From the IMG/VR virus record IMGVR_UViG_3300028534_000019, positions 31,091-95,090 of that record: 64,000 nt of DNA, one strand, 5' to 3'. Positions 6,709 through 34,802 of this stretch are shown one piece after another. Position numbers and translations under genes: made by a program. Numbering within the stretch: position 1 is the stretch's first letter; every line of letters begins with the position of its first letter. The notes under the pieces are model-generated. The model made no database searches. It saw only the letters and a program-made list of their open reading frames with translations, and had not been told where the DNA came from. This DNA comes from a virus (taxonomy: Duplodnaviria > Heunggongvirae > Uroviricota > Caudoviricetes).

Positions 6709-6954
6709 TCACAAATTAATTTCAAAAAAGTTTCTTACTATGTAGTTTCAATTATGGTATTATTTTCTTTAATAGCAATATTATCAAAACCATCACAAAT
6801 TGAGATAGATGTAAAATCAGGTACTAAAACTCTAACTTGTGAATTTGCTGATGGATGGAGAGAAATAGAACCTGAAAAAGTTGTTGGGTTTAATGATGAA
6901 AATGGATATTGGACTTTTACAAATGGTTATGCTAAAAATTGTGAGGTTAGATAG
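6706..6954 (+). CDS. small membrane-anchored protein (N-terminal TM helix)
   Basis: 82-aa ORF with a hydrophobic N-terminus YYVVSIMVLFSLIAIL. Confidence 0.45.
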   Translation: MSQINFKKVSYYVVSIMVLFSLIAILSKPSQIEIDVKSGTKTLTCEFADGWREIEPEKVVGFNDENGYWTFTNGYAKNCEVR

Positions 6955-7157
6955 TGTTTGTTGATAAAATTTTAGAAAATGGTGTAGAGTGTGTTTTTAT
7001 TACACACTCCAACAAAATAAGAAAGGCATATAGATATAAAAATATTATTTGGAAAATATATGCTAGTGGTGGTTATTCTGAAGTTTTTGAAAGTGAAATT
7101 CAATTCTCAGGAACAAGAGAAGAAGCAAAACAGAAATATCCTGAATTATTTTTTTAA
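6954..7157 (+). CDS. small protein with C-terminal ...KYPELFF tail
   Basis: 67-aa ORF. Member of the recurrent YPE-x-x-F C-terminal set. Confidence 0.45.
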   Translation: MFVDKILENGVECVFITHSNKIRKAYRYKNIIWKIYASGGYSEVFESEIQFSGTREEAKQKYPELFF

Positions 7158-7166
7158 AGGTTAGAT

Positions 7167-7463
7167 ATGGATTTAGATAAAATAAGATTAATAGAAACAA
7201 ATAGTGCTTTAGGTTATATGGAAGTAGCATACCTAATACAAATAAATGAAAAAGAAATGCTTTGTGTGTATTCAAATGAAGAAGGATATGTAGGTGACCA
7301 TTCTTGGGTGGTTGGTGAAGTGTATGATATGTTTGAATATGAGAGTGATTATGATGAAGTAATTAATGATAAGAAAGAAATGGTATTAAAAGATTCTCCT
7401 CTATATGGTGATTTTTTATTTGACTTTTTCTTAAAACATCTAATTAAGAATAAACTATGTTAG
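7167..7463 (+). CDS. hypothetical acidic protein
   Basis: 98-aa ORF. Confidence 0.4.
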   Translation: MDLDKIRLIETNSALGYMEVAYLIQINEKEMLCVYSNEEGYVGDHSWVVGEVYDMFEYESDYDEVINDKKEMVLKDSPLYGDFLFDFFLKHLIKNKLC

Positions 7464-8191
7464 ACTATATATCTATATTAGCTGGTGGTTCTTGTAAATT
7501 TAATTGTGAATTTTGTGTTGGTAATTCTATAAGAGAAAATATCACACCTCATTATAGTTCAAAAATCAAAGGTTTTTTAGAATGTTATGCTGATAGAACA
7601 CAATTACTTTCAGTTTCAGGTGATACTTCAGACCCATCATTAATAAGTGAAACAATATTTATTCCTGTTGAAGCAAAAGAGTATAATAAAGATATAAAAG
7701 TTAGCATACATACAAGGGATATATATTTTACTGAAAAAGCAATGGATTATGGTTATGATAAAATTGTTTTAAGTATTGATGAAACACTTTCAGAAAATGA
7801 TTATCAAACCTTAGTAAATTATTATTACCACTATGGTTATAATATTAGATTAAGTTTTGTTTTAACATCATCTAATTTTTGGATTATTGATGAATGGAAA
7901 AAAGATTTTCCAGCATTATTTGATATGGAATTAACAATAAGACCTGATGTATTTGAAAAAGATGAGGTTTTTAGAAAACATATTTTTTTAGAAACATTTC
8001 TTGGTATAGATGGAGATTGGCAAAATATAGAGCAATATAAAAATGAATATGGTGCTATTGTTTTAGAAAAGTACCCTAATGTTTGGTATTGGGATTATAA
8101 TGTTACTAATAAAAATCTTGATGTTTTATATCTTTTTAGTAATGGTGACATAAAAAATAATTGTAAGTGGGAAAATTTATATGAAAATTAG
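7457..8191 (+). CDS. radical SAM domain protein
   Basis: N-terminal CKFNCEFC (CX3CX2C 4Fe-4S motif) preceded by a Gly-rich AGGS. Downstream SVSGDTSDP is a GGEP-like SAM-binding motif. Confidence 0.65.
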   Translation: MLDYISILAGGSCKFNCEFCVGNSIRENITPHYSSKIKGFLECYADRTQLLSVSGDTSDPSLISETIFIPVEAKEYNKDIKVSIHTRDIYFTEKAMDYGYDKIVLSIDETLSENDYQTLVNYYYHYGYNIRLSFVLTSSNFWIIDEWKKDFPALFDMELTIRPDVFEKDEVFRKHIFLETFLGIDGDWQNIEQYKNEYGAIVLEKYPNVWYWDYNVTNKNLDVLYLFSNGDIKNNCKWENLYEN

Positions 8192-8423
8192 ATTAATAGA
8201 TTATAAAGAAGAAAGTTTTGATTTTCCTTACCCACCAAATTATGGTATGGATTTAGCAAAAATAAAAATAATGGGTAGTACTTTAGATATAGATAAGAAA
8301 CTATCTAAACATCTTGCTGAGTATAATTATTTTATGTATAAGGGTATGAAGATATTTTTTGAAGATTTAAACAATGACTCAAAAAAGAAAATGTATTCAG
8401 AATACCCTGAATATTACTTTTAG
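8181..8423 (+). CDS. small protein with C-terminal ...EYPEYYF tail
   Basis: 80-aa ORF. Member of the YPE-tail set. Confidence 0.45.
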   Translation: MKIRLIDYKEESFDFPYPPNYGMDLAKIKIMGSTLDIDKKLSKHLAEYNYFMYKGMKIFFEDLNNDSKKKMYSEYPEYYF

Positions 8424-8438
8424 TGATTAGGGGATTAT

Positions 8439-8795
8439 ATGAGTTTAGAAAGTACAGTGGCTTCACAGTCAATACACCCAGGAACATATGAAGTACATTG
8501 GGAAAATACATTCGATACAAAAGAAATAGTTAGTACAATAGAAATAAAACAAACTATATATTCTAGTAATCAATTAAAAAAAGTTCTTAAAAAATTATTA
8601 AAAAATTTTGATAAATTAAATAGTGAAATAAAATTAATAGAACCATCATATAATAATACTGAAGAAAAAATTAATAGAACATTTGCTATAATTGATATGA
8701 ATAATGAATATGAGATTAATAAACTAATTTCAGAAGGGTATTCTTTAAAAGAGATACACCAAGGTAAATTTATATTATACAAAAGGATTATATAA
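8439..8795 (+). CDS. hypothetical protein
   Basis: 118-aa ORF. Confidence 0.4.
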   Translation: MSLESTVASQSIHPGTYEVHWENTFDTKEIVSTIEIKQTIYSSNQLKKVLKKLLKNFDKLNSEIKLIEPSYNNTEEKINRTFAIIDMNNEYEINKLISEGYSLKEIHQGKFILYKRII

Positions 8796-9316
8796 TGGTT
8801 TTAAATTTTTATGGCGGGCCGGGTATTGGTAAAAGTACAAAAGCATCAGAGTTATTTTTTAGATGTAAACAACAAAACTTACAGGTTGAATTAATACACG
8901 AGTTTGCTAAAGATATGGTTTATTCTCAATCTATGGAAATATTGAAAGACCAATATTATGTAGGTGCTAATCAACATCATAGGGTGTGGAGAGTTCATAA
9001 CTATTACTTACAACAAGGTTTTAAAGAGGATGAATTTCTTATAATAACTGATAGTCCTATTTTGTTGGGTGCGGCTTATACTGATGATGATAAATTAAGA
9101 GATTTTATTTTTGAAACTTCAGAAAGATATAATAATATTAATATTATGCTAACAAGAAAATTTAATTACCAAGAAGAGGGAAGAAACCAAGATTTAAAAG
9201 GTGCTATTGAGATTGATAAAAAAGTTTTAGATTTATTAAATAAAACTTCTTATATAGAAACAAATGATACAGATAAAATTTTATCTCTAATTAAGGAAAA
9301 AATGAGTACAATATAA
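8795..9316 (+). CDS. P-loop NTPase / small-molecule kinase (NadR-RNK or AAA_28-like)
   Basis: Walker A GGPGIGKST at the N-terminus and IITDSP Walker-B-like. The layout resembles ribosylnicotinamide/nucleotide kinases. Exact substrate is not inferable. Confidence 0.5.
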   Translation: MVLNFYGGPGIGKSTKASELFFRCKQQNLQVELIHEFAKDMVYSQSMEILKDQYYVGANQHHRVWRVHNYYLQQGFKEDEFLIITDSPILLGAAYTDDDKLRDFIFETSERYNNINIMLTRKFNYQEEGRNQDLKGAIEIDKKVLDLLNKTSYIETNDTDKILSLIKEKMSTI

Positions 9317-9335
9317 ATATTAAAAAGGAGATAAA

Positions 9336-9914
9336 ATGACACTTGAAACATTTGCTGTTGAGTATAATAACTTAAAAATAGAAAAAGTATATATAAATTC
9401 ACACACATTAGAATCAGTAAAAAAAAGATTTAATATAGATTTAAAAATATCAGACCTAAAATCTGATATTTCTTTATCTATTGCTTTTCAAAAATATAAA
9501 AAGAATTTTACAGTAAATGATTTTAAGTTTGTTATCTTTATAAATGATATTGTACTTGTATTAAATATATATGAAAAAAATAATAAGTTTTATGGTAAAG
9601 TACTAACAGCATTATCACAAAAACAATTTGAATTAAGCAAAAATTTTTATCTTGGTAGTATTTTTGGTAATTTTGAGTGTACTATAAAAGAATATGCTTA
9701 TGAAGAAGTTTATTTTAATAATAGTTTTGAAAATATAAAAAAATCACTAAATGATTACAAACAATTACCAATATCACTAGATATTGCAACAAGTGATAGT
9801 GATATTAAAAGATTGAGAAAAGCAAACAGAACTGTTGATGTACCTTATATAAAAGGTTATTTTATAAAAGTTGTTGATGGTATTGATTATCTTATTATAG
9901 GTAGTAAAAAATAA
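9336..9914 (+). CDS. hypothetical protein
   Basis: 192-aa ORF. Confidence 0.45.
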   Translation: MTLETFAVEYNNLKIEKVYINSHTLESVKKRFNIDLKISDLKSDISLSIAFQKYKKNFTVNDFKFVIFINDIVLVLNIYEKNNKFYGKVLTALSQKQFELSKNFYLGSIFGNFECTIKEYAYEEVYFNNSFENIKKSLNDYKQLPISLDIATSDSDIKRLRKANRTVDVPYIKGYFIKVVDGIDYLIIGSKK

Positions 9915-9931
9915 GTATATGGAGGGTTAAT

Positions 9932-10387
9932 ATGAATAAACAAAAGTTTTATTTTAATAGTGAACATTTTGAATATGCTATTAATGACATTAAAAATAGA
10001 GTCCTATTGAATGTTAAAAAAGATGGTTTACAGATTGTTTCAGTGTTTAAGGATGGTTTACCTTTGGGTGTAAGGTTATCAAATGAATTTAATACAGGGT
10101 TGAGTATTATAAATTATGAAAAGTTTAGCTCAAATTCTGATAGTGTAACATTGCTTAAAGATGATGGTTTAAGAGGTGCTACAAATATATTAATTGTAAG
10201 TGACTTAGTACAAGATAAAAAGGGTTTTGAAAAAATTGTAAAATATATTAAAGAAAAATATGATAAAGAACCTATTATATACACTTTATTTGGTGACCCT
10301 TTGGAAAATAATACTAGATGGAATTTTACATTTAAAGAAAATGGACAGAAAATTCAATTCATTCCTTGGGTTGGAATGGATGTATAA
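9932..10387 (+). CDS. hypothetical protein, weak phosphoribosyltransferase-like motif
   Basis: NILIVSDLVQDKKGF loosely resembles the type-I PRT motif (hhhVDDhhDTGgT). Weak call. Confidence 0.3.
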   Translation: MNKQKFYFNSEHFEYAINDIKNRVLLNVKKDGLQIVSVFKDGLPLGVRLSNEFNTGLSIINYEKFSSNSDSVTLLKDDGLRGATNILIVSDLVQDKKGFEKIVKYIKEKYDKEPIIYTLFGDPLENNTRWNFTFKENGQKIQFIPWVGMDV

Positions 10388-10411
10388 ATAATTCTAAAAT
10401 AGGAGAAAGAA

Positions 10412-10999
10412 ATGAAAAAATTTAGTGAATATATGAGTGAAAAAGCACTTGTAGAAGAAATGGAAGATAAGATAGGTTTAATGTTATATATGGCAGAAAA
10501 AAGTGATATTATAGCTGAATCTTATGATTTTGAAAATTTAACAGAAAGCCAAAGAATTGTACTTGAAGAAGGTGTAAATGATTGGTTAAACAAAGTTGGT
10601 CTTAAATTACATAAAACAAAAGGTATTATTGATTATTTAGCTGATTTTACTAAAGGTACAGGTAAAGTTCTTATGTCAGCAATTAAAGGTGATAAAGAGG
10701 CTGTTAAAGAACAACTTAAAAATGTTAAAAAAGAAGAAGTTTTAGATTTCTTACTTAAATTAGATATGGCTACATTACATATTGTTACCGGCCCGATACA
10801 CTTAATTGATGCTGTTACAGGTTGGGATTTAATGGCTAATGTTAAAGCAGTAGCTAAAACAGCAACTGATAAACTTAAAGAATTTTATCAAGCAATGAAA
10901 AAAGTAAAAGAAACAATTACAACTGTTTTACAAGGTACTAAACAAAAGAAAATGTTACAATTAGCAACAAACTTAGAAACAACAATTCCTGCACCTTAG
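10412..10999 (+). CDS. hypothetical protein
   Basis: 195-aa ORF. Confidence 0.45.
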   Translation: MKKFSEYMSEKALVEEMEDKIGLMLYMAEKSDIIAESYDFENLTESQRIVLEEGVNDWLNKVGLKLHKTKGIIDYLADFTKGTGKVLMSAIKGDKEAVKEQLKNVKKEEVLDFLLKLDMATLHIVTGPIHLIDAVTGWDLMANVKAVAKTATDKLKEFYQAMKKVKETITTVLQGTKQKKMLQLATNLETTIPAP

Positions 11000-11019
11000 A
11001 ACAAAAAAAAGGATTTTAA

Positions 11020-11538: not shown

Positions 11539-11741
11539 GGTATTACTATGAAGATATTTAAAAAAATTATTTTATCTATGATTATAAGTTTAAGCCTTTT
11601 TGTTTTTGACCCTTATAAACTTAACAGGTTAAGAGATTATCATAAAATTGAAAACACAAAATAACCTTAAAGACTTATAAAACTTACAATAACCTTACAA
11701 CACTACATAAAGTATTATAAATAATTATAAAAGGATTTATA

Positions 11742-12089: not shown

Positions 12090-12099
12090 AGGTTTTATT

Positions 12100-13872: not shown

Positions 13873-13925
13873 AAATTAAGTATTTTTACTGTATAATAAA
13901 ATCTATTAAAAATAAAAGGTTATAT

Positions 13926-14552
13926 ATGAGAAAGAAATTTAATGAAGATAAGAACAAAACTTATGAGAGTAAAGAACACTCTTTACATAAAAAGAAGATT
14001 GTAAAAAATCAAGACTATACAAAATTTAGGTTTTTTATAGGAACTTTTGATAATCAAACACCTAAGTTTCATTTAATATTAAATGATTTATATGATTCTA
14101 ATGAAAAAGATGAATTAGAATTAAGAATTATGTCACCAGTTGGATTGGTTATTGAATGTCAGCAAGTTGTGAATATAATGAATAACAAATTTAATGGTAG
14201 AACAACAGCATATATTGAAAGCCACGCTAGTTCAGCAGGTGCTATTGTTTTTGCTAATGCTGATAAAAGAGTTATATATGAAAATTCAAGAATAATGTTT
14301 CACAACTATTCAGGTGGTTATGGTGGTAAATTTCAAGATATTAAAGATAGATTAGATTTTGATGAAAAACATATTATTTCTTTTTTGAGTGTTGCTAAAC
14401 AATTCTTAAATAAAAAAGAATGGAAACAAATGGTAAATGGAAAAAACTTTTGGTTTGATGCTTCTGATATGTTAAAAAGAAATATAGCAACTCATATCAT
14501 AGTAGATGGTAAAGAGATGACTAAGAAAGAATATAAAAAATATAAAAAATAA
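13926..14552 (+). CDS. ClpP-like serine protease (candidate prohead protease)
   Basis: HASSAGAIVFANA (ClpP active-site Ser region), RIMFHNYSGG (catalytic His region). Adjacent to the terminase. Confidence 0.7.
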   Translation: MRKKFNEDKNKTYESKEHSLHKKKIVKNQDYTKFRFFIGTFDNQTPKFHLILNDLYDSNEKDELELRIMSPVGLVIECQQVVNIMNNKFNGRTTAYIESHASSAGAIVFANADKRVIYENSRIMFHNYSGGYGGKFQDIKDRLDFDEKHIISFLSVAKQFLNKKEWKQMVNGKNFWFDASDMLKRNIATHIIVDGKEMTKKEYKKYKK

Positions 14553-14606
14553 TAATCTCTATAATAGAAAATCATATAAATATTATTAAAATTAAAGAGG
14601 TATAAA

Positions 14607-15344: not shown

Positions 15345-15358
15345 TATAAAGGAAAAAT

Positions 15359-15754: not shown

Positions 15755-15830
15755 TCTATGTTCCCACAATAAAATTTTTAAAAAATCAATAATAAACATA
15801 CTATTTTTATTTTACTTTAAGCATATAGTA

Positions 15831-17051: not shown

Positions 17052-17250
17052 TCTAAAAAGTGCTGATGAAATATATTTAGTAGTACAGTTTGGAGCAAAA
17101 GATTTTAACAATAGAACACAAGAATTGATTGATGAAAATTATATTCCATTTAGTGATGTTGCTGTTCAAAGTTTTCACGATGAATTTTGCTTTTCACAAC
17201 AGTTTATAAAAAATCCAAAATACATAGAAGAAACAAAAAGGAAAATATAA
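17041..17250 (+). CDS. hypothetical small protein
   Basis: 69-aa ORF bridging smpB and the next gene. Confidence 0.35.
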   Translation: MIDNLKSADEIYLVVQFGAKDFNNRTQELIDENYIPFSDVAVQSFHDEFCFSQQFIKNPKYIEETKRKI

Positions 17251-18041
17251 TGTTAATAGTACCTGTTGGTTTGCCTGGTTCAGGAAAAACTGTTTTATCA
17301 AGAAAATTTAATACAGTTATAAATGCTGATGAATTGTTTAAGGATAATTATACATTAGATGATTTAATAAATTATATAAAAGAATATAATTATACAGTAA
17401 CAGATGTTTATTTGGATGGTTTATTTATTACAAGGAATTTAGTTAAGAAATTGATTGAAACTTTTGATTATTATATTAGATTAGTATATTTTAAACCTAA
17501 TATAGAAAATTGTATCTACAATGATTTATCAAGAAATAGAGAAAAAGATAGTGTTAATATAATTTATGGTTCTGATTTAAGTTTTATGAAAGAAAGTTAT
17601 TTTAGAAATAAAATAAGAGAAACAATGGAAGTATATAAGGCTGATTATGTAGAATATATAAAAGAAGAAAATAACTTTCAAAATTATATAGAAACACAAG
17701 AGTATGTCTTAGAAGGAAGTACATATGGTACTTGTTGGGATGAAGACGGCCCGTCTGAAACAACACCTGATGACCCATACCATTTTACTGATTTTACAGA
17801 ACTTGAAAAGATATTTAAAAAAATGAATATTCCTTATACAGAAGAAAATTATAATAAAATTGAAAGTGTTATAGAAGAAGAAGATAGAAGTGAGGGTGAT
17901 TATTATGGTGGTTATGCTTATAAAGAGGTTTATAGAGTTGAAGTTACATTATTAATAAAAGCAATACTAAAAGAGTTTTTTGGTATTGATAAAACAGATA
18001 TGGCATATATTAAAAAAGAATACCCTGAACTAATATTTTAA
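17250..18041 (+). CDS. P-loop kinase (polynucleotide-kinase-like kinase domain) ending ...KKEYPELIF
   Basis: MLIVPVGLPGSGKT Walker A at the N-terminus, as in the T4 Pnk kinase domain (ILTIGCPGSGKST). The ORF track extends to 17187, but the ATG at 17250 gives the P-loop at the N-terminus. Confidence 0.5.
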   Translation: MLIVPVGLPGSGKTVLSRKFNTVINADELFKDNYTLDDLINYIKEYNYTVTDVYLDGLFITRNLVKKLIETFDYYIRLVYFKPNIENCIYNDLSRNREKDSVNIIYGSDLSFMKESYFRNKIRETMEVYKADYVEYIKEENNFQNYIETQEYVLEGSTYGTCWDEDGPSETTPDDPYHFTDFTELEKIFKKMNIPYTEENYNKIESVIEEEDRSEGDYYGGYAYKEVYRVEVTLLIKAILKEFFGIDKTDMAYIKKEYPELIF

Positions 18042-18056: not shown

Positions 18057-18569
18057 ATGGTAGAAGAAAATAATTTTAGAGAAACAAAAACACATATTTA
18101 TTTTTGGGGTAGTATCTATTCTCAATGGTACACTTCAAAAAACCAATTCAAAGAAGATGGATTTATTTTTCAAAATGCTGAACAGTATATGATGATGAAA
18201 AAAGCAGAACTTTTTAAAGATTATGATGTATTAGAAAAAATGAAACAAACAAGTAATCCAAAGGTATTAAAAAAATTGGGTAGAGAAATTAAAGGTTTTG
18301 ATGAAGATATTTGGAATTTTAATAAAATGGATATTGTTGAAAGAGGGAATTTTTTAAAGTTCTCTCAAAATCCTAAGTTATTAGAAAAACTTATAGCACA
18401 CAAAAATAAACATATAGTAGAAGCATCACCTTATGATAAGATTTGGGGTATTGGGCTTCATTGGTCAGATGATAAGGTATTAAATGAAAGTACTTGGAAT
18501 GGTGAAAATCTTTTAGGTAAATGTATTATGTCAGCAAGAGATAAAATTTTAAATCCAAAATCTATATAA
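18057..18569 (+). CDS. NADAR-domain protein (YbiA-like, ADP-ribose/NAD-related N-glycosidase family)
   Basis: Collinear with E. coli YbiA: FWGSIYSQWY, NAEQYMMMKKAELF, FSQNPKLLEKL, VEASPYDKIWGIG (YbiA: VEHTENDAYWGDG). Confidence 0.8.
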   Translation: MVEENNFRETKTHIYFWGSIYSQWYTSKNQFKEDGFIFQNAEQYMMMKKAELFKDYDVLEKMKQTSNPKVLKKLGREIKGFDEDIWNFNKMDIVERGNFLKFSQNPKLLEKLIAHKNKHIVEASPYDKIWGIGLHWSDDKVLNESTWNGENLLGKCIMSARDKILNPKSI

Positions 18570-18639: not shown

Positions 18640-20490
18640 ATGGCAGTTATTGGTATAGATTTAGGAACGACAAATAGTGCTGTTTCAGTTTATGAAGTAG
18701 GGGAATTTAAAATTATTCCTAATGCTGAGGGTAAAAATACAACACCTAGTATTGTAGCATTTACAGATAAAGGGGATGTATTAGTAGGGGAATCAGCAAA
18801 AAGACAAGCAGTCACAAACCCTGAAAAAACTATTGAAGCAATTAAAAGAATTATGGGTATGCAATTTAATGAACCTAGATGTAAAGAGGCTCAAGAAAAA
18901 GTACAATATAAAATTGTAGATAAAAATGGTTTGGCCGCTGTTGATGTTGATGGTAAGATTTATACACCACAAGAAATTTCAGCTAAAATCCTTACAAAAC
19001 TAAAAGATGATGCAGAAGCATTTATTGGTAAAGAAGTTACAGATGCTGTAATTACAGTTCCAGCATACTTTAATGATGCTCAGAGAAAGGCGACACAAGA
19101 GGCAGGCGTTATTGCAGGGCTTAATGTACTAAGAATTATTAATGAACCTACTTCGGCCGCTCTTGCTTATGGTTTGGACAAAAAAGGTGAGGAAAATATT
19201 CTTGTTTATGATTTTGGTGGTGGTACTTTTGATGTATCTGTATTAGAAATTGGAGATGGTACTTTTGAAGTTCTTTCAACTGATGGTAATGCTTTCTTAG
19301 GTGGTAAAGACTTTGACCAAATTTTAGTTAATTATATTGCTGAATATTTTAAAGAGAAACAGGGTGTTGATTTAAGAAATGATAAAATGGCACTTCAAAG
19401 ATTATATGATGCTTCAGAAAATGCTAAAAAAGAGTTATCAAGTGTTGTAGAAACTGAAATTAACTTACCATTTATTACTATGACAGAAGCCGGCCCGCAG
19501 CATCTTGTTTTAAAAATTTCAAGAGGTAAATTTGAGGGGTTAGTACAAAATCTTGTAGATGAAACTATTGAACATATTACAACAGCATTACAAGACGCTG
19601 GTTTAAGTGTAGATGATATTAGTGAATTGATTATGGTTGGTGGCTCAACAAGAATACCTTTAGTACAAGAGGCAGTTTCAAAGTATTTTAAAGGTAAAAC
19701 TCTTAATAAATCTGTTAATCCTGATGAAGTTGTAGCCGCTGGTGCTTCAATTCAAGGTGGTGTATTAACAGGAGATGTAAAAGATGTTCTTCTTCTTGAT
19801 GTTACACCATTATCACTTGGTATTGAAACTATGGGTGGTATTGCTACTAAAATCATCCCAAAAGGTACAACTATTCCTGTTAAAAAATCAGAAATCTTTA
19901 GTACAGCAGTTGATAATCAACCAGCAGTTAGTATTGTAGTAGTACAAGGTGAAGCAAAATTAGCAGAAGATAATAAATCTTTAGGACAATTTAATCTTGA
20001 GGGTATAACACCAGCTAAAAAAGGTGTACCACAAATTGAAGTTAATTTTGATGTTGATTCTAATGGTGTTTTGAGTGTATCAGCTATTGATAAAGGAACA
20101 GGTAAAGAACAGAAAATAACAATTACAGGTTCGACAGGTTTAAGTGAAGAAGAAATTAGAAAGATGATTGATGATGCTGAAAAACAAAATCAAGAAAAGG
20201 CTGAAAAAATTAAAGCAATTGAAGCAAAAAATGAATTGGATGCTACTCTTTCAAGAATTAAAAACTTTAATGATGAAGAAAAAAATGAAGTGCTATCAGC
20301 TAAAATTTCTGATGTTGAAGAATATGTAAAAGAAGATAGAACAGCAGAAGAAATTAGAAAAATTAGAGATGAACTTGAAGAAGTTTATTTAAAAGCATTT
20401 GAAGAGAAATCAAAAAGAAATGAAGGTGCTGAGGTAAAAGAAAGCACTGAAAATAATGATGATGTTATTGATGCTGAAATTGAAGAATAA
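18640..20490 (+). CDS. dnaK: Hsp70 chaperone DnaK homolog (full NBD + SBD + lid)
   Basis: [26 protein letters not shown] and the substrate-binding domain are all canonical. Confidence 0.95.
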
Positions 20491-20501
20491 AAGAGGAAAA
20501 A

Positions 20502-21305
20502 TTGAAAAAATTATATAAAATTCTTGAAATTGAAGAAACTTCTACAACAGTAGAAATAAAAAAAGCATATAGAAAATTAGCTAAAAAATACCACCCTGAT
20601 GTTTGTAAAGAAGAGGGTGGTGAAGATAAGTTTAAAGAAATTAATAGAGCATATGAAGTTCTAAGCAATCCACAAGAAAAACAAAAGTATGATAGATTTG
20701 GTGATGAAATGTATGAAAAAATGGGGTCAGGTGGTGGAAGACCTAATCCAAATGCTGATGAGTTTGCAGAAGCAATGGCATCATTTTTCAACCAAAAGGG
20801 AAATCCCCGACAAGGTAATCCTTTTGGTATGGGTGGTAATCCTTTTATTCATACAACAATTCAAGCATATATTTCGATAGAAGATTTATTTAAAGGTACT
20901 TCTATACAATTACAAGATGGTACTAAAGTAAAAATACCACCTAGAACAATACCGGGTAGTAGGGTAAGAGTTAAAGGCAAAGGTATGTCAGATGGTAAAA
21001 ATACAGGAGATTTATTTATTATCATAACACCAAAAAATAATGATAAAGAATTTGTTGAGAATGATACTATTATAAAGATTATCAAAATTGATTTAGTTAG
21101 TATGATTTTTGGAAATGAAATAAAATATAATCATTATGGTAAAGATTTAATTGTTACTGTTCCAAAAAATACAAAGCCCGGTGACTTTGTACAAATTCCC
21201 AATCAGGGCTTAGGTACTCAGGGTTCATTAATTTTACATTTAGATTTAGAATTACCAAAAGCAGAAGATTTAGATGAAGAAAAAGTAAAAGAATTATTTA
21301 ATTAA
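20502..21305 (+). CDS. DnaJ-like J-domain co-chaperone (type II, no Zn finger), TTG start
   Basis: J-domain YKILEI...AYRKLAKKYHPDV...YEVLSNPQEKQKYD. Gly-rich linker and a DnaJ C-terminal domain. AAGAGGAAAAA RBS before the TTG. Confidence 0.85.
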   Translation: MKKLYKILEIEETSTTVEIKKAYRKLAKKYHPDVCKEEGGEDKFKEINRAYEVLSNPQEKQKYDRFGDEMYEKMGSGGGRPNPNADEFAEAMASFFNQKGNPRQGNPFGMGGNPFIHTTIQAYISIEDLFKGTSIQLQDGTKVKIPPRTIPGSRVRVKGKGMSDGKNTGDLFIIITPKNNDKEFVENDTIIKIIKIDLVSMIFGNEIKYNHYGKDLIVTVPKNTKPGDFVQIPNQGLGTQGSLILHLDLELPKAEDLDEEKVKELFN

Positions 21306-24447: not shown

Positions 24448-25548
24448 ATGTTAGTTCAAAATAAAAAAGTTCCAAAAGAAACATTAGAGTTATTGGACTC
24501 TAAAATAGAAGAATTTGAAAAAAATACAAATTCAACTGTTTTATATATTACAATTACAGGTTCTGTTCTTTATGGTACTGATAATGAAAATAGTGATTTA
24601 GATTTTAAAGGTATTTTTATGCCTAATCTAAAAGAAGTGCTTATTGGTAATACACCTAGTGCTTTTGTTTTTAATTCAAATACAAAAGATAAAAACTCTT
24701 CTGATGATATTGATTTAACATTACACCCTGTAAATGACTTCTTTAATCATCTTAGAAAATCTGAAACAGGTGCTGTTGATTTACTTTTTAGTATGTTTAG
24801 AGAAGATACTATTGTTTTTGATGATGGTATTTTCACGAACTTTATGAAGAAAAATTATCAAAAGTTTAGAAATTCTAATATGAAAAGTTTTATCGGTTAT
24901 GCTGTTGGTCAAACTAAAAAATTTGGGATTAAAGGTGCTAGATATGAAGAGTTAGATGTTTTTTATAAAGATTGTGTTAATTATTTTAATCTTGCTCCAA
25001 AAGAAAATAAATTAGGTGAATATTGGGATTTTCTTGAACTAAAAGCCCAAGGTAAAAAATATATTAAGTTTACAAAAGCAGAAGGTGCTAGAAGAAATGA
25101 TGGTAGTAGTAATATCATTGATTATATTTCTGTTCTTGGTAAACTATATCATAAAGATGTAACAGTAGGTTATTTTTTAGAAAGAGTTTCTAAATTTTAT
25201 AATCAATTTGGTAATAGAACTAAAACAGTAGCTAAAACTGAATCAAAAACAGATTGGAAAGCAATGAGCCACGCCCTTAGAGTAGCTATGGAAGTTAAAG
25301 AGTTACTTCAATTTGGTTTTATTAAATTTCCATTGACTTATGCTGATGAGATTAAAGAAGTTAAATTTGGTAACAGAGAAGAACAAGAAACATTAGATAA
25401 AATTAGAGATGTATTGGGTGAAGTTGATACAATATTAGAAAATATTGATAAAGATAACTTTCCTTGTGAAATGAGTGAAGAATTACTTAAAAAATTAAAA
25501 TGGGAAGTAATTCTTCTATATAAAGAGTTTTTAGATTTAGGTTTTTAA
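24448..25548 (+). CDS. nucleotidyltransferase-fold protein (Pol-beta / CD-NTase-like GS...D.D motif)
   Basis: ITGSVLYGTDNENSDLDFKGIF is the [GS]x9-13 Dh[DE]h signature. A third acidic DIDLT lies downstream. 366 aa. Confidence 0.55.
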   Translation: MLVQNKKVPKETLELLDSKIEEFEKNTNSTVLYITITGSVLYGTDNENSDLDFKGIFMPNLKEVLIGNTPSAFVFNSNTKDKNSSDDIDLTLHPVNDFFNHLRKSETGAVDLLFSMFREDTIVFDDGIFTNFMKKNYQKFRNSNMKSFIGYAVGQTKKFGIKGARYEELDVFYKDCVNYFNLAPKENKLGEYWDFLELKAQGKKYIKFTKAEGARRNDGSSNIIDYISVLGKLYHKDVTVGYFLERVSKFYNQFGNRTKTVAKTESKTDWKAMSHALRVAMEVKELLQFGFIKFPLTYADEIKEVKFGNREEQETLDKIRDVLGEVDTILENIDKDNFPCEMSEELLKKLKWEVILLYKEFLDLGF

Positions 25549-25549
25549 A

Positions 25550-26602
25550 ATGGATTTTGATTTTGATGAAATTGTTGCTACAAGAACTTATGTTGATTGT
25601 TATTGTAATGATAATATAAGTTCAGATGATATTAAAGGTATATTAAATCCTAATTTTATTAATAAAACATTAAATGAAATAGATAATTTTTTATATGGTG
25701 GTTTTAATTATTTTAGTAAAAGAGTTCCATTCACTTTAGCTGGTGGTTCTCTTCTTAGTTATTGTTCTTATTATATAGCTACAAAAAATGATTATGGTAA
25801 TCCAAAAAGTTATTTAGATTGGTTGGAATATTCAGGTAATTCTGATATTGATTTATTTTTTGAATGTGAGGAAGATTATATAAAAATGCTTGAAGCAGTA
25901 CAAAAAAATGGTTTTAGTAATTTATCACCTAAACCAAATGCTAAAAGTTTTTATAAAAAAAGAGGAAAAAATAAAAATACAATTTCAATAGATTTAGTAC
26001 ATAAAGATTATTCAGCACCACAAAAACTTATAGATAGATTTGATTTGAATAAGAGTAAAATTGCTATAAGTTCTTATGGCAATCTTTATATAGGTAATGA
26101 TTTTGATAATTATCTTTGTTTAAATCCATTAAATATAAATTATAATACTATATCAAGATTTAAAAAATATTCTATAACAAAACATATACAACCTTCATAT
26201 AAAACTTTACAAGAACTTGTACATATTTTCATTGATAAACAAGATGAAGTATATGAAAGTTTTTATAATGATGAAAAAAGAGATATACCTATGTATGGTG
26301 GGCTTGAAAATCTGATTACAATTATTGTAGATTGTAAAAAGTTATATAACATAGATTTAAAACTTAGTCGTGATGAGGTATTTAACTTATATTTAATATT
26401 GGAGAAACATTTTTCTGAAAAAGATAGATTAATTTCTTTTTTTACAAAAATAATTAATGAAGATAGTATTGATTATATACCTAAAATATATGAATTATTA
26501 TTACAACGACAAGATAGATTTTATGGAAAACAATTTGAAGATAATATGGATGAATCTATTAGAGATAAAGTTTTAGAAACATACCCTGAAATAATGTTTT
26601 AA
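25550..26602 (+). CDS. second nucleotidyltransferase-fold protein, ending ...VLETYPEIMF
   Basis: LAGGSLLSYC...SGNSDIDLFFECEE NTase signature. 350 aa. Start 2 nt after the previous stop. Confidence 0.5.
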   Translation: MDFDFDEIVATRTYVDCYCNDNISSDDIKGILNPNFINKTLNEIDNFLYGGFNYFSKRVPFTLAGGSLLSYCSYYIATKNDYGNPKSYLDWLEYSGNSDIDLFFECEEDYIKMLEAVQKNGFSNLSPKPNAKSFYKKRGKNKNTISIDLVHKDYSAPQKLIDRFDLNKSKIAISSYGNLYIGNDFDNYLCLNPLNINYNTISRFKKYSITKHIQPSYKTLQELVHIFIDKQDEVYESFYNDEKRDIPMYGGLENLITIIVDCKKLYNIDLKLSRDEVFNLYLILEKHFSEKDRLISFFTKIINEDSIDYIPKIYELLLQRQDRFYGKQFEDNMDESIRDKVLETYPEIMF

Positions 26603-26664
26603 CACATAAAAATTAAGTAATATTACTATATAATATGACTTATTAAATATAATAAAGGAAAAAA

Positions 26665-27576: not shown

Positions 27577-27589
27577 AAAAGGATAAAAA

Positions 27590-28428: not shown

Positions 28429-28442
28429 TAAAAGGAACAATT

Positions 28443-28889: not shown

Positions 28890-28940
28890 TTAACATATTT
28901 TATGTTATAATTCTAACATAAAAATAAAAAAAGGATATTA

Positions 28941-30483: not shown

Positions 30484-30667
30484 TGAACTTTTTAAACATA
30501 AAGAAAAAGGTACTATTTATAAAGTAATTAAAACAGATAATATCAATGGTATTAACACTGTTACTTATAAAGAGGACTCTTTCCCTGATAGTGCTAAACC
30601 AAGAATATATGTAAGAGATTTATATATGTTTCTTAAAAATATGGAATTAATTGAAGATAAAGGTTAG
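30473..30667 (+). CDS. hypothetical small protein
   Basis: 64-aa ORF. Confidence 0.35.
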   Translation: MMSNELFKHKEKGTIYKVIKTDNINGINTVTYKEDSFPDSAKPRIYVRDLYMFLKNMELIEDKG

Positions 30668-30669
30668 AG

Positions 30670-30909
30670 ATGGAAATACAATCTTTATTATATAAATGTG
30701 ATAAATGTGATGCTATTATAGATAATCCAATTTCTAAAGAATATAATATTCATTTTTGTAACAAATGTGTTTTAGAGTTTATTCATAATAAGATGGTAAT
30801 TGAATTTAATGAACCTCAAAAAATTCATAACATAAATGAAAATCATAAAGATGAACATATAACGACAAAAAATATAGATTTTTGTGAAGTTAGTATTAAG
30901 GATTTATAA
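30670..30909 (+). CDS. small zinc-ribbon protein
   Basis: CDKCDA...FCNKC pairs of Cys. Confidence 0.4.
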   Translation: MEIQSLLYKCDKCDAIIDNPISKEYNIHFCNKCVLEFIHNKMVIEFNEPQKIHNINENHKDEHITTKNIDFCEVSIKDL

Positions 30910-31217
30910 TGTCAAAGCAATGGCTTAGTGAATTAATAGAACAGCCATATGAATGGTGTATTGAAACTGTTACAAAAGAGCCTGAATTACTAAAAAATAT
31001 AAAAGTACAAACACAAGAACTTTGTGAAATAGCATTTTATGAAGATTATAAAACAGCAAAATATATACATCAAGAATTTAGATTTAATGAGAGAATTTTA
31101 GCTATTGCTCGACAGCATAGTTTATTAAATAAAAGCATACCACAAGATATGCTTGAAAAAATAAATGAATATCCATATAATTACTTTGAAAAGAAATATC
31201 CTGAAATCTTTTTCTAA
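30909..31217 (+). CDS. hypothetical protein ending ...EKKYPEIFF
   Basis: 102-aa ORF. Member of the YPE-tail set. Confidence 0.45.
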   Translation: MSKQWLSELIEQPYEWCIETVTKEPELLKNIKVQTQELCEIAFYEDYKTAKYIHQEFRFNERILAIARQHSLLNKSIPQDMLEKINEYPYNYFEKKYPEIFF

Positions 31218-31345
31218 TTTAATAAAAGGTTAAGGTTGTATTAGCTATAATTCTACATACACAAAATAAAAGTAAAGGATTTGATATGACATAAATGTTT
31301 GTTATAGAAATTTAGATACATAATATAAAACAAAAGGAAAAAGAA

Positions 31346-31549
31346 ATGGATAGCAAAACAGCAGAAGGTTTAGGTATAGCAATTGGTGCTATTATTGTAT
31401 TAATTATAGGATTAGCAATTCAATTAGGTATTTTTTATCTAATCGCTTTAGGGTTGATTTGGGCTTTTGATATAGCAATAGTACCAATTAAATTAGCAAT
31501 TGGAATGTGGTTAGTTAAAATAGTGCTTAGTTTAGCAGTAAGAAAATAA
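31346..31549 (+). CDS. small two-helix membrane protein (candidate SPFH partner)
   Basis: 67 aa, almost entirely hydrophobic, with two predicted TM helices. Immediately upstream of the Band7 gene. Confidence 0.5.
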   Translation: MDSKTAEGLGIAIGAIIVLIIGLAIQLGIFYLIALGLIWAFDIAIVPIKLAIGMWLVKIVLSLAVRK

Positions 31550-31567
31550 AAAATAAAAAGGAAAGAA

Positions 31568-32455
31568 ATGGATAAAGGTTTATTTGGAATTATTGGAGCA
31601 GGTGTATTAGTAGTTATGCTATTAATTTTAGGTGCTACATCAGTTTATACAGTTGATGAGGGTAAAGTTGGTATTGTAAAGACTTGGGGTAAAGCAGTAA
31701 AGCAAGTTAATCCCGGACTTCACTTCAAAATGCCTATTGCTGATGAGGTTGTAGAGATTGAGGTAAGAACAAGAAAAAATGTTGAAACTATGAGTATTGC
31801 TACAAGTGAGCAAATGGCGGCAAAAGCAACTGTTTCTATGAACTGGACTGTTAATAAAGCAAGTGTTTTAGAACTCTATAAGAAATATGGCTCACTTGAC
31901 CAATTTGAAAGTAGAATTTTAGACCCAAAACTTAGAGATGCCACAAAAGAGGGTATTGCTAAATTTACAGCAGAACAAAATATTAAGAACAGAGGTGTAA
32001 GCACACTCAAAGTTAAGGAATTATTTATTAACCAAATTAAAGGTTATCCTATTACTGTTAATGGTTTTCAAATTGAAGATATTCAATTAAGTAAAAAATA
32101 TCTTGCTTCAATTGATGCTAAACAAACAGCTAAAAATGAAAGAGATGCTGAAAAATTTAAACTTGAAAAACAAGCCCTTGAAGCACAAAGAGCAGTAAAT
32201 ACAGCAAATGCTGAAAGAGATGCCGCTAAAGCAAGAGCAGATGGTGTGGCTTATAAAATTGAAGCAGAAGCAAAAGCAAATGCTAAGAAAATTGCCCTTA
32301 TTGCTGGAGCAGAAGCAAAAGCAATTAAACAAAAAGCACAAGCACTTAAAAATAACCCTGCTATTATAGACTATATGAGAGCAGAAAAATGGAGTGGGAA
32401 TTATCCTACTACTATGATGGGTAGCAACCCAAACATTCTTATGAAATTAAAATAA
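31568..32455 (+). CDS. SPFH / Band 7 (stomatin-prohibitin-HflK family) membrane protein
   Basis: N-terminal TM helix, then YTVDEGKVGIVKTWGK...PGLHF (SPFH core). C-terminal Ala/Lys-rich coiled coil. Confidence 0.8.
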   Translation: MDKGLFGIIGAGVLVVMLLILGATSVYTVDEGKVGIVKTWGKAVKQVNPGLHFKMPIADEVVEIEVRTRKNVETMSIATSEQMAAKATVSMNWTVNKASVLELYKKYGSLDQFESRILDPKLRDATKEGIAKFTAEQNIKNRGVSTLKVKELFINQIKGYPITVNGFQIEDIQLSKKYLASIDAKQTAKNERDAEKFKLEKQALEAQRAVNTANAERDAAKARADGVAYKIEAEAKANAKKIALIAGAEAKAIKQKAQALKNNPAIIDYMRAEKWSGNYPTTMMGSNPNILMKLK

Positions 32456-32465
32456 GAGTATCTTC

Positions 32466-32489
32466 TAATAGAGGTTTTTACCTCTATTA
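32466..32489 (+). terminator. hairpin TAATAGAGG-TTTTTA-CCTCTATTA 10 nt after the Band7 stop (no U-tract)
   Basis: 9-bp perfect inverted repeat seen in the sequence. No poly-T follows, so it may be a transcript 3' stabiliser or weak terminator. Confidence 0.3.
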
Positions 32490-32602
32490 CCCCTAACACA
32501 TCTACATACATATAATCACAACAACAAAACAACAAAAAATTTTAATATTACATTAAGAATATTCAGCTATAATACTACATATAAAACATAAAAGGATTAA
32601 AA

Positions 32603-32914
32603 ATGGAAGAGTTTTTAAATAAGTTTGAAAAAATAGTTGATAGTTTCCCTTTAAACCCATCATACTTTTTAGTATTGGATATAGCAAATGATGTTTCAAA
32701 TGCTATGTTAGAAGATGATAAAGAAGTTTGTAGAAATATGTTATTAAAATATATTAAAATTGAATGTAGCATAGAAACATATAATGAAAACAGAAAAGAA
32801 ATTGATAAATTAATTTCAAAAATTAAAGAAACATTGATTACACTTTGTTTAACATTTTCAAGAGATGATAGTTTTATAATGGTTGATGATAATTTAATAG
32901 ATTTAGAATTATGA
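32603..32914 (+). CDS. hypothetical protein
   Basis: 103-aa ORF driven by the repeated GCTATAAT cassette. Confidence 0.45.
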   Translation: MEEFLNKFEKIVDSFPLNPSYFLVLDIANDVSNAMLEDDKEVCRNMLLKYIKIECSIETYNENRKEIDKLISKIKETLITLCLTFSRDDSFIMVDDNLIDLEL

Positions 32915-33183
32915 TTGAAAATTATTTTGATTGGTTTTTAAATAATTCTGAAGAATTAAGTGATTTTAGGAATGATTTTTTATATACGATAATAACTATT
33001 GAAACAGCACCAAAAATGGAACTTAGTTTATTCTATGTTTTTAAAGATTTAGGTATTAATCTTGATATATCTGATATTAGTGTTAAGGTTAATAGTACAA
33101 GTTCTAGTTTAAGTGTTTCAGATAATTTAAAAGAAAAACTAAAACTCTATATAAAAGAAAAATATCCTGAAATTATATTCTAA
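32911..33183 (+). CDS. hypothetical protein ending ...KEKYPEIIF
   Basis: 90-aa ORF. Member of the YPE-tail set. Confidence 0.45.
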   Translation: MIENYFDWFLNNSEELSDFRNDFLYTIITIETAPKMELSLFYVFKDLGINLDISDISVKVNSTSSSLSVSDNLKEKLKLYIKEKYPEIIF

Positions 33184-33245
33184 TTAATTTTAATTTAAGC
33201 ATTTAATAGATATAATATCACATATAAAAGGAAAAAGGAACAAAA

Positions 33246-33461
33246 ATGAGTTTAACATATAAACAGATTACAGAACATATTTCTAAGATTAAAGAAAATA
33301 TTTCTATTCTTGAAGATAGACTTGATACTGAATGTAAAAGTGCTGAGTCTAATAGTTGTATTGCTAAAACATTACTAGAAGAACTTGATAAGCAAGAGAT
33401 GGCTTTAATGGTAGCTGAAGATTATTTTGATAGAGTAATAGATAGAGGAAGAGGAGATTAA
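33246..33461 (+). CDS. hypothetical small coiled-coil protein
   Basis: 71-aa ORF. Confidence 0.4.
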   Translation: MSLTYKQITEHISKIKENISILEDRLDTECKSAESNSCIAKTLLEELDKQEMALMVAEDYFDRVIDRGRGD

Positions 33462-33464
33462 AGA

Positions 33465-34577
33465 ATGAAAATTACAGAGATTAAACCTATTTTACAGTTT
33501 TCTAAAGATGCTGATGATGCTGTAATCATTGAGGGTAAACACGGTATTGGTAAATCAGAAATAGTTAAACAATATTGTTCGGAAAATGGTTATTTTTATA
33601 CTGTTTTATTTTTAAGTCATCAAGAAGTTGGTGATTTGATTGGTATGCCTTTTGAAAAAAATGGTATTCAATATTGGTCTAAACCATCTTGGTTAGTAAG
33701 AATGGAAGAAGCATCAGCAAGAGGGGAACATAATGTTTTACTCTTAGATGAGTTAAACCGAGCCCAAACTGATGTATTACAAAGTGCTTTACAACTTGTT
33801 TTAGAAAGACAAATTCACGAGCATTTCTTACCTACTACTGATGGTGTAAGAAGTCAAGTAATTGCTTGTATTAACCCTGATGATGATTTATATCAAGTAA
33901 TTACACTTGACCCAGCACTAAAAGATAGATTTTTACATTTAAAAACAAGTGAAGATTTACAAGGATGGGTTAAATGGGGTGGTGAAAAAGGAGTACCTGA
34001 TGTTGTTATTCATTACTTGCTTGAAAATGAAAATGATTTTCATAGTACAAATGAAGATGGTGAGGGTGCTACACCAAGAAGTTGGTATAAATTAAGTCAA
34101 TTCTTGAAAATATTTGAAGATAAAGAAGTTGAAGAATTTCAACTTTGGGAGATTATTAAAGGTAAAGTAGGTTCAAGTATCGGTAGCAAATTCCTTAACT
34201 TTTATAATACTCATAGTACATTTATTGATGTTACAAAAATTAAAAAGTTTTTAAATAAATATAAAAGAGATATTTCTGATTTACCTGAAATTGGTGCTGA
34301 ATTAGCTAGTTATATTAAAGGTCTTGAACAAGTAACTAAAGTAGAACAAGTTAATAAACTATATCACGACAGTATTGAAAAAATTAAAGATACTAAAGTT
34401 ACTATGGATGATGAAGATATTTTCACTATTTTTGCTATGCTTCACGCTTTTGAAATAGAAGTAACAACATCAGTTATGAAGCAATGGAAAAATGAAAGTG
34501 TGAGTGATTTTATGGATTTTGTTAAAAAAGATAATAAAGAACTCATTACATTAATAACAAGAAGATTAAAAACATAA
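33465..34577 (+). CDS. MoxR/CobS-like AAA+ ATPase (AAA_5)
   Basis: Walker A GKHGIGKSE, Walker B/sensor LLLDELNRA. 370 aa. Confidence 0.75.
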   Translation: MKITEIKPILQFSKDADDAVIIEGKHGIGKSEIVKQYCSENGYFYTVLFLSHQEVGDLIGMPFEKNGIQYWSKPSWLVRMEEASARGEHNVLLLDELNRAQTDVLQSALQLVLERQIHEHFLPTTDGVRSQVIACINPDDDLYQVITLDPALKDRFLHLKTSEDLQGWVKWGGEKGVPDVVIHYLLENENDFHSTNEDGEGATPRSWYKLSQFLKIFEDKEVEEFQLWEIIKGKVGSSIGSKFLNFYNTHSTFIDVTKIKKFLNKYKRDISDLPEIGAELASYIKGLEQVTKVEQVNKLYHDSIEKIKDTKVTMDDEDIFTIFAMLHAFEIEVTTSVMKQWKNESVSDFMDFVKKDNKELITLITRRLKT

Positions 34578-34592
34578 AAGAGGTATTAAAAA

Positions 34593-34802
34593 ATGTATGC
34601 TTTAATAGGTTATAATGATGAGTATTATTACATTCAAATTTTTTCAGAAACTGATGTTGTGTATGGTTATATAATATATAACTTTAGTGGGGATAAAAGT
34701 TTAGTAGTTGATAATTTCCCAATTAGTTCAGTATTAAAAAGGTTTGAAACATTATATACTATTGAAGAAATACAAAATTTATACCCTGAATTAAAGTTCT
34801 AA
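34593..34802 (+). CDS. small protein ending ...NLYPELKF
   Basis: 69-aa ORF between the AAA+ and VWA genes. Member of the YPE-tail set. Confidence 0.45.
   Translation: MYALIGYNDEYYYIQIFSETDVVYGYIIYNFSGDKSLVVDNFPISSVLKRFETLYTIEEIQNLYPELKF

Follow-up and report, generated by a model that had tools for sequence, protein, structure and literature searches.

Among the T-even phages, the internal proteins form a diverse set whose sole conserved part is a capsid-targeting sequence (CTS)(PMC3012670), which in T4 reads MKTYQEFIAE (PMC8442874). Other short terminal peptides serve as degrons at the extreme C terminus (ssrA, MuA-type and non-polar tails), or act at the replisome, where terminal hydrophobic or aromatic residues dock many proteins on one hub (the single-stranded DNA-binding protein tail SSB-Ct, DDDIPF; the terminal Phe of T7 gp2.5 and gp4; and T4 gp45 clamp-binding peptides). 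Here we describe a C-terminal tail, YPE..F in the phage in which it was first seen, that recurs on otherwise unrelated phage proteins. It was noticed in a 64,000-nucleotide stretch of DNA (positions 31,091 to 95,090 of the IMG/VR virus record IMGVR_UViG_3300028534_000019; hereafter the window) from a T4-like myophage with 26% GC content. The initial annotation of the window reported the tail on seven genes; its scale goes beyond these, and it is a clade-wide tag.

The tail resembles the CTS of T4 internal proteins IPI–IPIII in that a terminal peptide of ~10–15 residues is the sole shared part of diverse, fast-evolving small accessory proteins. The CTS, however, is N-terminal, is cut off by the prohead protease and occurs on a few basic, head-packaged proteins, whereas the tail is C-terminal, has up to 75 mostly acidic carriers per genome and has no late promoter directly upstream of its genes. 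With C-terminal degrons it shares the extreme C-terminal position, hydrophobicity of the last three residues, a free carboxylate and portability, and the phage has a ClpP-family gene, but the consensus is unrelated (no LAA or RRKKAI) and the tail is genetically encoded on a quarter of a proteome. The likeness to replisome tails lies in the docking of many proteins through a short end, yet the replication proteins of this clade lack the Pro-Glu tail and several end instead in the acidic-aromatic ...LDDW or ...LDDFLEW. Type I secretion signals and PDZ class II/III ligands also combine an amphipathic helix, an acidic residue and about three terminal hydrophobic residues; no RTX repeats, exporter or PDZ gene was seen, however, and the invariant Pro and preceding aromatic residue of the tail are foreign to those signals. 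Finally, arrays of co-oriented small ORFans with a recurring element at each border recall PeSL cassettes and integron attC sites, but these are DNA elements outside open reading frames (ORFs), whereas the tail is in frame, with variable synonymous sites and conserved amino acids. To all appearance the tail is an address or docking tag that has not been described before. In scans of 27 carriers, nothing in Pfam or PHROG covered it, and the literature searched, including the genome papers of the Vibrio phages phiTY18 and Pv27, does not mention the motif, in line with the view of the initial annotation that no phage tag of this form had been described.

In a six-frame translation of the window, YPE..F occurs exactly seven times, always on the plus strand and each time with a stop codon directly after it, at the ends of proteins of 67–350 amino acids (Table 1). 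Shuffling residues within proteins predicts 0.0006 such endings per proteome; for a looser ending (P-[ED] and at least two hydrophobic residues in the last three) 0.11 are expected, with a maximum of 3 in 5,000 shuffles. At the DNA level, the pattern TAYCCTGAAN6TTYTAA has 7 matches against 0.24 expected. Even the string YPE is found only eight times in the ~89 window proteins, seven times in the tails and once internally, in a gp6-like baseplate protein. The non-randomness claimed for the seven endings is thus borne out. A PEN-x-F string at the window start, which had been set beside them as an eighth and similar case, is indeed internal, in a 206-amino-acid ORF, and does not belong with the tails.

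Apart from the tail, the seven carriers are unrelated, as had been proposed: all-against-all blastp of the proteins without their tails gave a best E value of 0.07, and most of the seven had no match in Pfam or PHROG. Two had been read as a P-loop kinase and a nucleotidyltransferase (NTase); the NTase fold is backed by the analyses below, whereas the P-loop kinase match is weak. Tail ORF 5 carries a degenerate extra copy of the tail, EYPYNYF (residues 87–93; nucleotides 31167–31187), directly upstream of KKYPEIFF, which suggests a tandem duplication of the tag. The orthologue of this ORF in the uncultured relative L135 (7069–7455) ends in ...EEDNPEFFI.

Alignment of tails from the window phage and its relatives gives the consensus phi-x-x-phi-[KRE]-x-x-[YFH]-P-E-phi-phi-[I/L/F]-COOH, in which phi is hydrophobic, and conservation is confined to the final 14–15 residues, with none upstream of position -15. 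Hydrophobic residues occupy -14/-13 and -10 (86–89%), charged residues -9 to -7, and Tyr, Phe or His -6, followed by Pro at -5, Glu at -4 and three hydrophobic residues. The last three positions are hydrophobic in 93–100% of a 43-tail set, and in phiTY18 the figures are 97–99% for -2 and -1 and 61% for -3, values that in part reflect the search criterion itself (two or more of three). Glu(-4) is present in 41 of the 43 tails, in 75/75 phiTY18 tails (by selection) and in 46 of the 49 members of the NTase family, which was not selected for the tail. The last residue follows lineage, being Phe in the window phage and its sister contigs and Ile or Leu elsewhere; the consensus 15-residue tail is DELIKAVKEKYPELFI for Vibrio phages and KLYIKEKYPEIIF for the window phage.

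The tail recurs throughout the relatives of the window phage. Three sister contigs from the JGI metagenome Ga0256843, reached through a promoter/5' untranslated region (UTR) element at 94–98% identity, add six tails (FPEYVF, FPEFLF, YPDIIF, YPEFIF, YPERFF and YPELKF) on carriers unrelated to window proteins. Three uncultured relatives reached through their MoxR gene at 43–50% identity (L135, L136 and L137) have 17, 7 and 6 tailed ORFs, respectively, scored by the pattern [YFHN]-P-E-[YIFL]-[FWIL]-[ILV] at the ORF end, and a further IMG/VR contig (L143) has 9; each of these counts refers to 13–21 kb. In Vibrio phage phiKT1024, at least 13 tails occur in 41 kb around its MoxR gene. The complete 191.5-kb genome of Vibrio phage phiTY18 has 75 tailed genes among ~325 ORFs (23%), against 0.5 predicted from the internal frequency of the pattern, and the proportion rises to 35% (70/198) among genes of up to 140 amino acids. 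With the searched-for pattern set aside, the background in 1 Mb of other viral contigs was ~0.2% of ORFs. Chance frequency, the outcome that the initial annotation had named as able to undo its claim, therefore does not account for the motif.

No tails were found in the first 50 kb of Campylobacter phage CP220, nor in three segments centred on the large terminase subunit gene (TerL; L127–L129), the latter because these segments are structural or replication blocks. A scan of IMG/VR with the DNA pattern TACCCTGAAN6TTYTAA returned mostly chance matches in short off-frame ORFs, and only one contig (L026) was informative. Among these chance matches (L001–L118), a protein with the C terminus GIELYPEIIF was found in four otherwise unrelated viral contigs; it may represent an unrelated conserved family.

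The tail behaves as a module. BLAST clustering of carriers without their tails splits a set of 43 into 38 clusters and the 75 of phiTY18 into 70. A paralogous small-protein family was rejected as an explanation, as the clusters are almost all singletons and both an NTase fold and a P-loop protein are found among the carriers. One family, phrog_2251 (DUF7205 in the precomputed Pfam table), matches two carriers over residues 1–57 only, a pattern that fits the addition of a tail to a family that already existed. Five pairs of cross-phage orthologues, at 25–43% identity, have kept the tail.

The most extended case of retention is the 350-amino-acid NTase of the window, the phiTY18 homologue of which (24% identity) adjoins MoxR and is likewise tailed. 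An exhaustive HMMER search recovered 48 further representatives of this family at 19–27% identity, where a word-index search had found none. Of the resulting 49 members, 47 terminate in the tail, and Glu(-4) is among the few nearly invariant columns. An AlphaFold2 (AF2) model built from the 49-sequence alignment has a predicted local distance difference test (pLDDT) score of 82.6, with a helix at residues 335–344 followed by the tail, and its best Foldseek matches are class II CCA-adding enzymes. Together, these sequence comparisons show that the tail occurs on dozens of proteins without detectable similarity and that orthologues retain it, at 20–35% identity, while the rest of the protein diverges.

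Codon usage indicates what is being conserved. In phiTY18, the Pro of the tail is encoded by all four codons, with CCA the commonest, and the Glu by both of its codons. The initial annotation had remarked that Pro is CCT and Glu is GAA in all seven window tails. This is so, but it is not specific to the tails: Pro-Glu pairs in the window use CCT in 34 of 35 cases and CCG in one, and never CCA-GAA. The pentamer CCAGA/TCTGG is present only twice in the window (1504–1508 and 54003–54007) against 53 ± 6.5 expected, and the invariant CCT-GAA follows from this genome-wide avoidance of CCAGA. CCAG is depleted as well (62 versus 152), and the scarcity of CCAGA looks like restriction-site avoidance. 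The rare codons TAC and TTC are enriched in window tails, which is explained by local codon context: TAC stands at 27% before codons that start with C, and TTC-TAA is also common in non-tail genes. A DNA-level signal behind the odd tail codons was dropped once codon context and CCAGA avoidance had been measured. An overlapping DNA element with conserved flanks was sought around the window tails, and the flanks are not conserved; a DNA repeat or recombination cassette of the attC or PeSL type was rejected on the same absence of flank conservation and on the variation at synonymous sites. The four Pro codons of phiTY18 and the unconserved flanks show that selection on the tail acts at the level of the peptide, as had been argued from the window.

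In the window, T4-type late promoters (TATAAATA) stand before structural genes but never directly upstream of a tail gene, and the 20 phiTY18 genes that have such a promoter include no tail gene. Tail genes stand instead in arrays behind sigma70-like promoters and not in structural blocks, from which we infer that the carriers are early or middle accessory proteins. Structural proteins, like replication proteins, lack the tail. Most carriers are acidic, as is the remaining proteome, and the basic character of 'internal proteins' is not seen.

Given this distribution, we consider it probable that the tail is a docking or address tag that is read by one common partner, and from sequence a portable docking or turnover tag appears to be its most likely function. 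It would consist of ~15 residues (a short amphipathic helix, an aromatic residue, Pro, Glu, three hydrophobic residues and the free carboxylate), would mark the accessory proteins of one clade of T4-like phages and would direct them to that partner. The tag is present in phages of Vibrio and, apparently, of other hosts. A phage-encoded reader is the most economical proposal, because the tag spans different hosts and its terminal residues differ by lineage; the partner would thus most probably be encoded by the phage and co-evolve with the tag.

Two sets of phage genes are candidates for such a reader. The first is a MoxR-type AAA+ ATPase with a DUF2201 protein that combines a metallopeptidase motif and a VWA domain with an intact metal-ion-dependent adhesion site (MIDAS) (Table 1). 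MoxR is kept in every tail-bearing genome in which the region was seen (43–52% identity in L135–L137 and 41% in the Vibrio phages), and the DUF2201/VWA homologue in phiTY18 is 35% identical. The MIDAS sites of VWA domains bind an exposed acidic ligand residue, as in integrin I-domains and Midasin. If MoxR and the HExxH-peptidase/VWA protein were the reader, the invariant Glu of the tail would be the ligand of the MIDAS metal site. The second candidate is the ClpP-family protease, which would act with a host unfoldase. It matches Pfam CLP_protease at 1.9e-8, with PHROG matches split between head maturation protease and ATP-dependent protease, and its phiTY18 homologue has canonical Ser/His/Asp motifs. 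PDB sequence searches with the ClpP-like and VWA proteins gave no matches. We regard the MoxR/VWA-peptidase pair as a doubtful, putative reader and rate the ClpP-linked route no higher, although this protease, one of the docking partners originally suggested, stays in contention through its conservation in phiTY18. Under either candidate the outcome would be remodelling or timed removal of accessory proteins. Still tentatively, this may amount to a tag system on the scale of the proteome, in which a phage-encoded reader (MoxR with VWA/HExxH, or a ClpP-type protease) acts on the early accessory proteins at set times, by remodelling, sorting or destroying them.

Both candidates belong to the genes common to the window phage and phiTY18, which also include gp32, RNase H, a primase-like protein, TerL, NADAR, the tailed NTase, an actin-like protein, Metallophos, PolyA_pol, a MazG-like protein and structural genes. 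Homologues of DnaK, DnaJ, Band7 and ThyX were searched for in phiTY18 without a match.

Several points weigh against a tag read by a phage-encoded partner. The tail of the NTase is modelled at only moderate pLDDT (about 76–81), and in the model it may pack on its own protein instead of hanging free. The co-occurrence of MoxR/VWA and ClpP with tails has been seen in few genomes, and the reader might just as well be a host protein that is conserved universally. In phiTY18, moreover, ATGA start/stop overlaps are found at 34% of tail genes but at only 2% of the other small genes, a notable association that entangles a translational role with the peptide and keeps a side-role alive.

The first of these points is the basis of an alternative in which the tail acts in cis, either as a self-packing C-terminal cap that confers stability or shields against proteases, or as a nascent-chain element that acts on termination or re-initiation. 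The helix–turn geometry of the NTase model would suit a cap. The association of tails with tightly coupled gene arrays would suit a nascent-chain element, as would their length, ~15 residues being what the ribosome exit tunnel sees. One cap for at least 70 unrelated folds, including enzymes of 230–380 amino acids, is nonetheless hard to explain without an external reader, all three stop codons occur after tails, and many tails have a long gap or a promoter behind them. A single-sequence AF2 model of the 102-amino-acid carrier gave a low-confidence tail and is uninformative. We regard a cis-acting role as unlikely.

Capsid or virion targeting would make the tail a C-terminal analogue of the T4 CTS, with the carriers as injected cargo, perhaps cleaved after the Glu by the prohead protease. 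The CTS MKTYQEFIAE can be set beside K-Y-P-E-F-I-F through a common pattern Y-x-E-phi-phi, the T4 protease cleaves after phi-x-Glu, and the best PHROG match of the ClpP-like gene is 'head maturation protease'. The likeness to the CTS spans only ~4 positions, however, and lies at the opposite terminus; tail genes lack a late promoter directly upstream in both the window and phiTY18; and 75 mostly acidic species of cargo would be implausibly many. The virion-targeting signal that the initial annotation had listed is weakened by the lack of late promoters and by the acidic, rather than basic, carriers, and we hold it to be quite unlikely.

A universal hub of the host (ClpX or another unfoldase, the beta clamp, or a PDZ-type or secretion receptor) would instead make the tail a degron, a hijacking motif or an export motif. 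The extreme C terminus, with its free carboxylate, acidic residue and three hydrophobic residues, follows a pattern shared by C-terminal degrons, PDZ class II/III ligands and protease-type type I secretion signals, and the tail occurs in phages of different hosts. Yet none of QL[SD]LF, LAA and Y-x-F fits its consensus, neither an exporter gene nor a PDZ gene was seen, and the terminal residues vary by phage lineage (Phe versus Ile/Leu), as would be expected of a co-evolving phage reader. The polymerase and other replisome proteins also lack the tail. A clamp-binding motif (QL[SD]LF or SLDFL-like) was rejected separately, as the consensus differs and no large phiTY18 replication protein is tailed; the clamp or processivity hub proposed in the initial annotation is disfavoured by the untailed large replication proteins, several of which carry a different, acidic-aromatic C-terminal motif. 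A host hub in general seems improbable to us.

That other motif is an observation in its own right. Acidic C termini with Trp or Leu end gp32 (1345–2358; ...DDLSFLEDL), RNase H (2370–3512; ...SSLDDFLEW) and the product of 5621–6088 (...LDEDEW) in the window, and phiTY18 proteins end in ...LDDW, ...DDFGW and ...NDDW. On replication-type proteins this acidic-aromatic motif is probably a docking tail of the replisome or SSB type.

The overlaps of phiTY18 raise the alternative that a nucleic-acid cassette at gene junctions (a Shine–Dalgarno (SD) sequence, a spacer and the ATGA overlap) is primary and the peptide a by-product. In the 34 phiTY18 tails with an overlapping downstream gene, the preferred codons are CCG (50%), GAG (88%), ATA and TGA, and these CCG-GAG...ATA-TGA tails place GGAG 6–8 nucleotides upstream of the ATG contained in ATA-TGA. 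Codon choice thus embeds an SD sequence in 34/75 phiTY18 tails; the remaining 41 have none, and neither do the 7 window tails. None of the latter overlaps the next gene: the downstream genes have their own SD after the stop, or a promoter region of 60–130 nucleotides intervenes, and promoter regions follow three of the seven. The 26 phiTY18 tails with the next gene more than 12 nucleotides away use the genome-typical CCA, GAA and TAA with equal conservation of the peptide, which argues that the peptide is the selected object and that codons are tuned secondarily as a ribosome-binding site (RBS). In addition, no more than the third base of the Pro codon could serve an SD, yet Pro is invariant and its commonest codon is CCA; the conserved hydrophobic positions -10 and -13 lie 30–40 nucleotides upstream; and the flanking DNA is not conserved. 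We judge a primary nucleic-acid function distinctly improbable.

A client or recruitment signal for phage Hsp70/DnaJ, suggested by the hydrophobic, aromatic tail and by the Hsp70 genes of the window and listed first among the candidate partners in the initial annotation, is scarcely credible, as phiTY18 has 75 tails and no Hsp70 or DnaJ homologue (tblastn, E ≤ 1e-5), which removes Hsp70 as a general mechanism, and no Vibrio phage is among the phage DnaK matches.

Table 1. Tail-bearing ORFs, candidate readers of the tail and copies of a promoter cassette; coordinates are those of the window unless a contig is named
Feature	Coordinates	Strand	Details
Tail ORF 1	6954..7157	+	67 aa; GTG start; tail ...EEAKQKYPELFF then stop, YPELFF at 7137-7154; downstream of sigma70-like promoter element 6631-6708; no match in Pfam or PHROG
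Tail ORF 2	8181..8423	+	80 aa; tail ...KKMYSEYPEYYF then stop, at 8403-8420; TAG stop
Tail ORF 3	17250..18041	+	263 aa from ATG 17250 (mechanical ORF, 284 aa, begins at TTG 17187); tail ...AYIKKEYPELIF then stop, at 18021-18038; P-loop GLPGSGKT, kinase-like; NADAR gene comes next
Tail ORF 4	25550..26602	+	350 aa; Pol-beta/CCA-adding-enzyme-like NTase; tail ...KVLETYPEIMF then stop, at 26582-26599
Tail ORF 5	30909..31217	+	102 aa; tail ...FEKKYPEIFF then stop, at 31197-31214
Tail ORF 6	32911..33183	+	90 aa; tail ...LYIKEKYPEIIF then stop, at 33163-33180; promoter-like site after
Tail ORF 7	34593..34802	+	69 aa; tail ...EEIQNLYPELKF then stop, at 34782-34799; between MoxR and HExxH-VWA genes
MoxR-type AAA+ ATPase (AAA_5)	33465..34577	+	Candidate reader; Pfam
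DUF2201 protein	35220..36473	+	Candidate reader; HExxH metallopeptidase motif HEMLH and VWA with intact MIDAS DISGS
ClpP-family serine protease	13926..14552	+	Candidate reader; own sigma70-type promoter; between terminase and neck genes
~70-nucleotide promoter cassette	6631-6708		Copy in the window
~70-nucleotide promoter cassette	36838-36905		Copy in the window
~70-nucleotide promoter cassette	L026 9081-9152		Copy in contig L026
~70-nucleotide promoter cassette	L131 7891-7947		Copy in contig L131
~70-nucleotide promoter cassette	L131 14643-14722		Copy in contig L131
~70-nucleotide promoter cassette	L132 7809-7876		Copy in contig L132

The gene content of the window is that of a T4-like phage, with gp32, RNase H, the large terminase, a T4 neck protein, gp25 and a gp6-like protein among its replication and structural genes, and with the ClpP-family protease, DnaK–DnaJ, a second Hsp70, NADAR, SIR2, RlaP, ThyX, the actin-like protein, a Band7 protein, the MoxR AAA+ ATPase and the DUF2201 protein. 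By TerL, the nearest cultured relatives are Vibrio phages of the phiKT1024 group (41%) and Campylobacter T4-like phages (39%); no close TerL relative was found in IMG/VR. Genes of defence, counter-defence and RNA-repair type (SIR2, DUF488, NADAR and the RlaP nucleotidyltransferase) are clustered at 4884–6088, 18057–18569 and 24448–25548, and a CCA-adding-type PolyA_pol at 38175–39122 is counted with this set. The Hsp70 genes, a DnaK–DnaJ pair (18640–21305) and a second Hsp70 (39844–41706), are not common to the Vibrio relatives. Two adjoining late-region proteins (47965–48654 and 48890–49618) end in IPNFLWA and IPNLLWV and may be paralogues with a common C terminus of their own.

A transfer-messenger RNA (tmRNA) lies at 39452–39772 (+) (Rfam RF00023, 90.8 bits) and encodes the tag peptide ANNTDYTGNTVLSA, which terminates in LSA, versus the usual LAA or KAA. 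Its NNTDY start is like that of epsilonproteobacterial tags, a hint at the host. The tmRNA tag was rejected as the source of the tail, which it does not resemble, and ARAGORN found no tmRNA in phiTY18.

Besides the late promoters, two promoter types were noted in the window. A near-identical cassette of ~70 nucleotides that comprises promoter, 5' UTR and RBS (TTTAAGT...TGTTATAAT...AAAAGGATTTAAAATG) stands before unrelated genes and resembles the mobile regulatory cassettes of T4-type phages. It occurs twice in the window and again in contigs from another metagenome (Table 1). A second type, AAATTAAGTA-N10-CT-R-TATAAT, occurs at 1130–1165, 13873–13925 and 26603–26664, where it precedes gp32, the ClpP-like gene and the actin-like gene, respectively; the ClpP-like gene thus has the same type of promoter as the other two. 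This type may represent middle-class promoters with a conserved upstream box.

Small ORFans without a known function make up most of the early genes of phages, and in phiTY18 35% of the genes of up to 140 amino acids share one tag. Such sharing would mean that these proteins converge on one piece of machinery. The identity of the reader would give dozens of orphan proteins a common step at once, and would show how a T4-like phage organizes or clears its host-takeover proteins. The tail codons that double as SD sequences offer a clean natural case of overlapping protein and translation signals, and tag and reader together would make a compact, transferable tool. The system can be put to a direct test, because phages of this kind are in culture (phiKT1024, phiTY18, Pv27, Va1 and the TDDLMA/SRILMA phages). 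If the proposal is true, these viruses encode a tag-and-reader pathway that has no described counterpart in phages.

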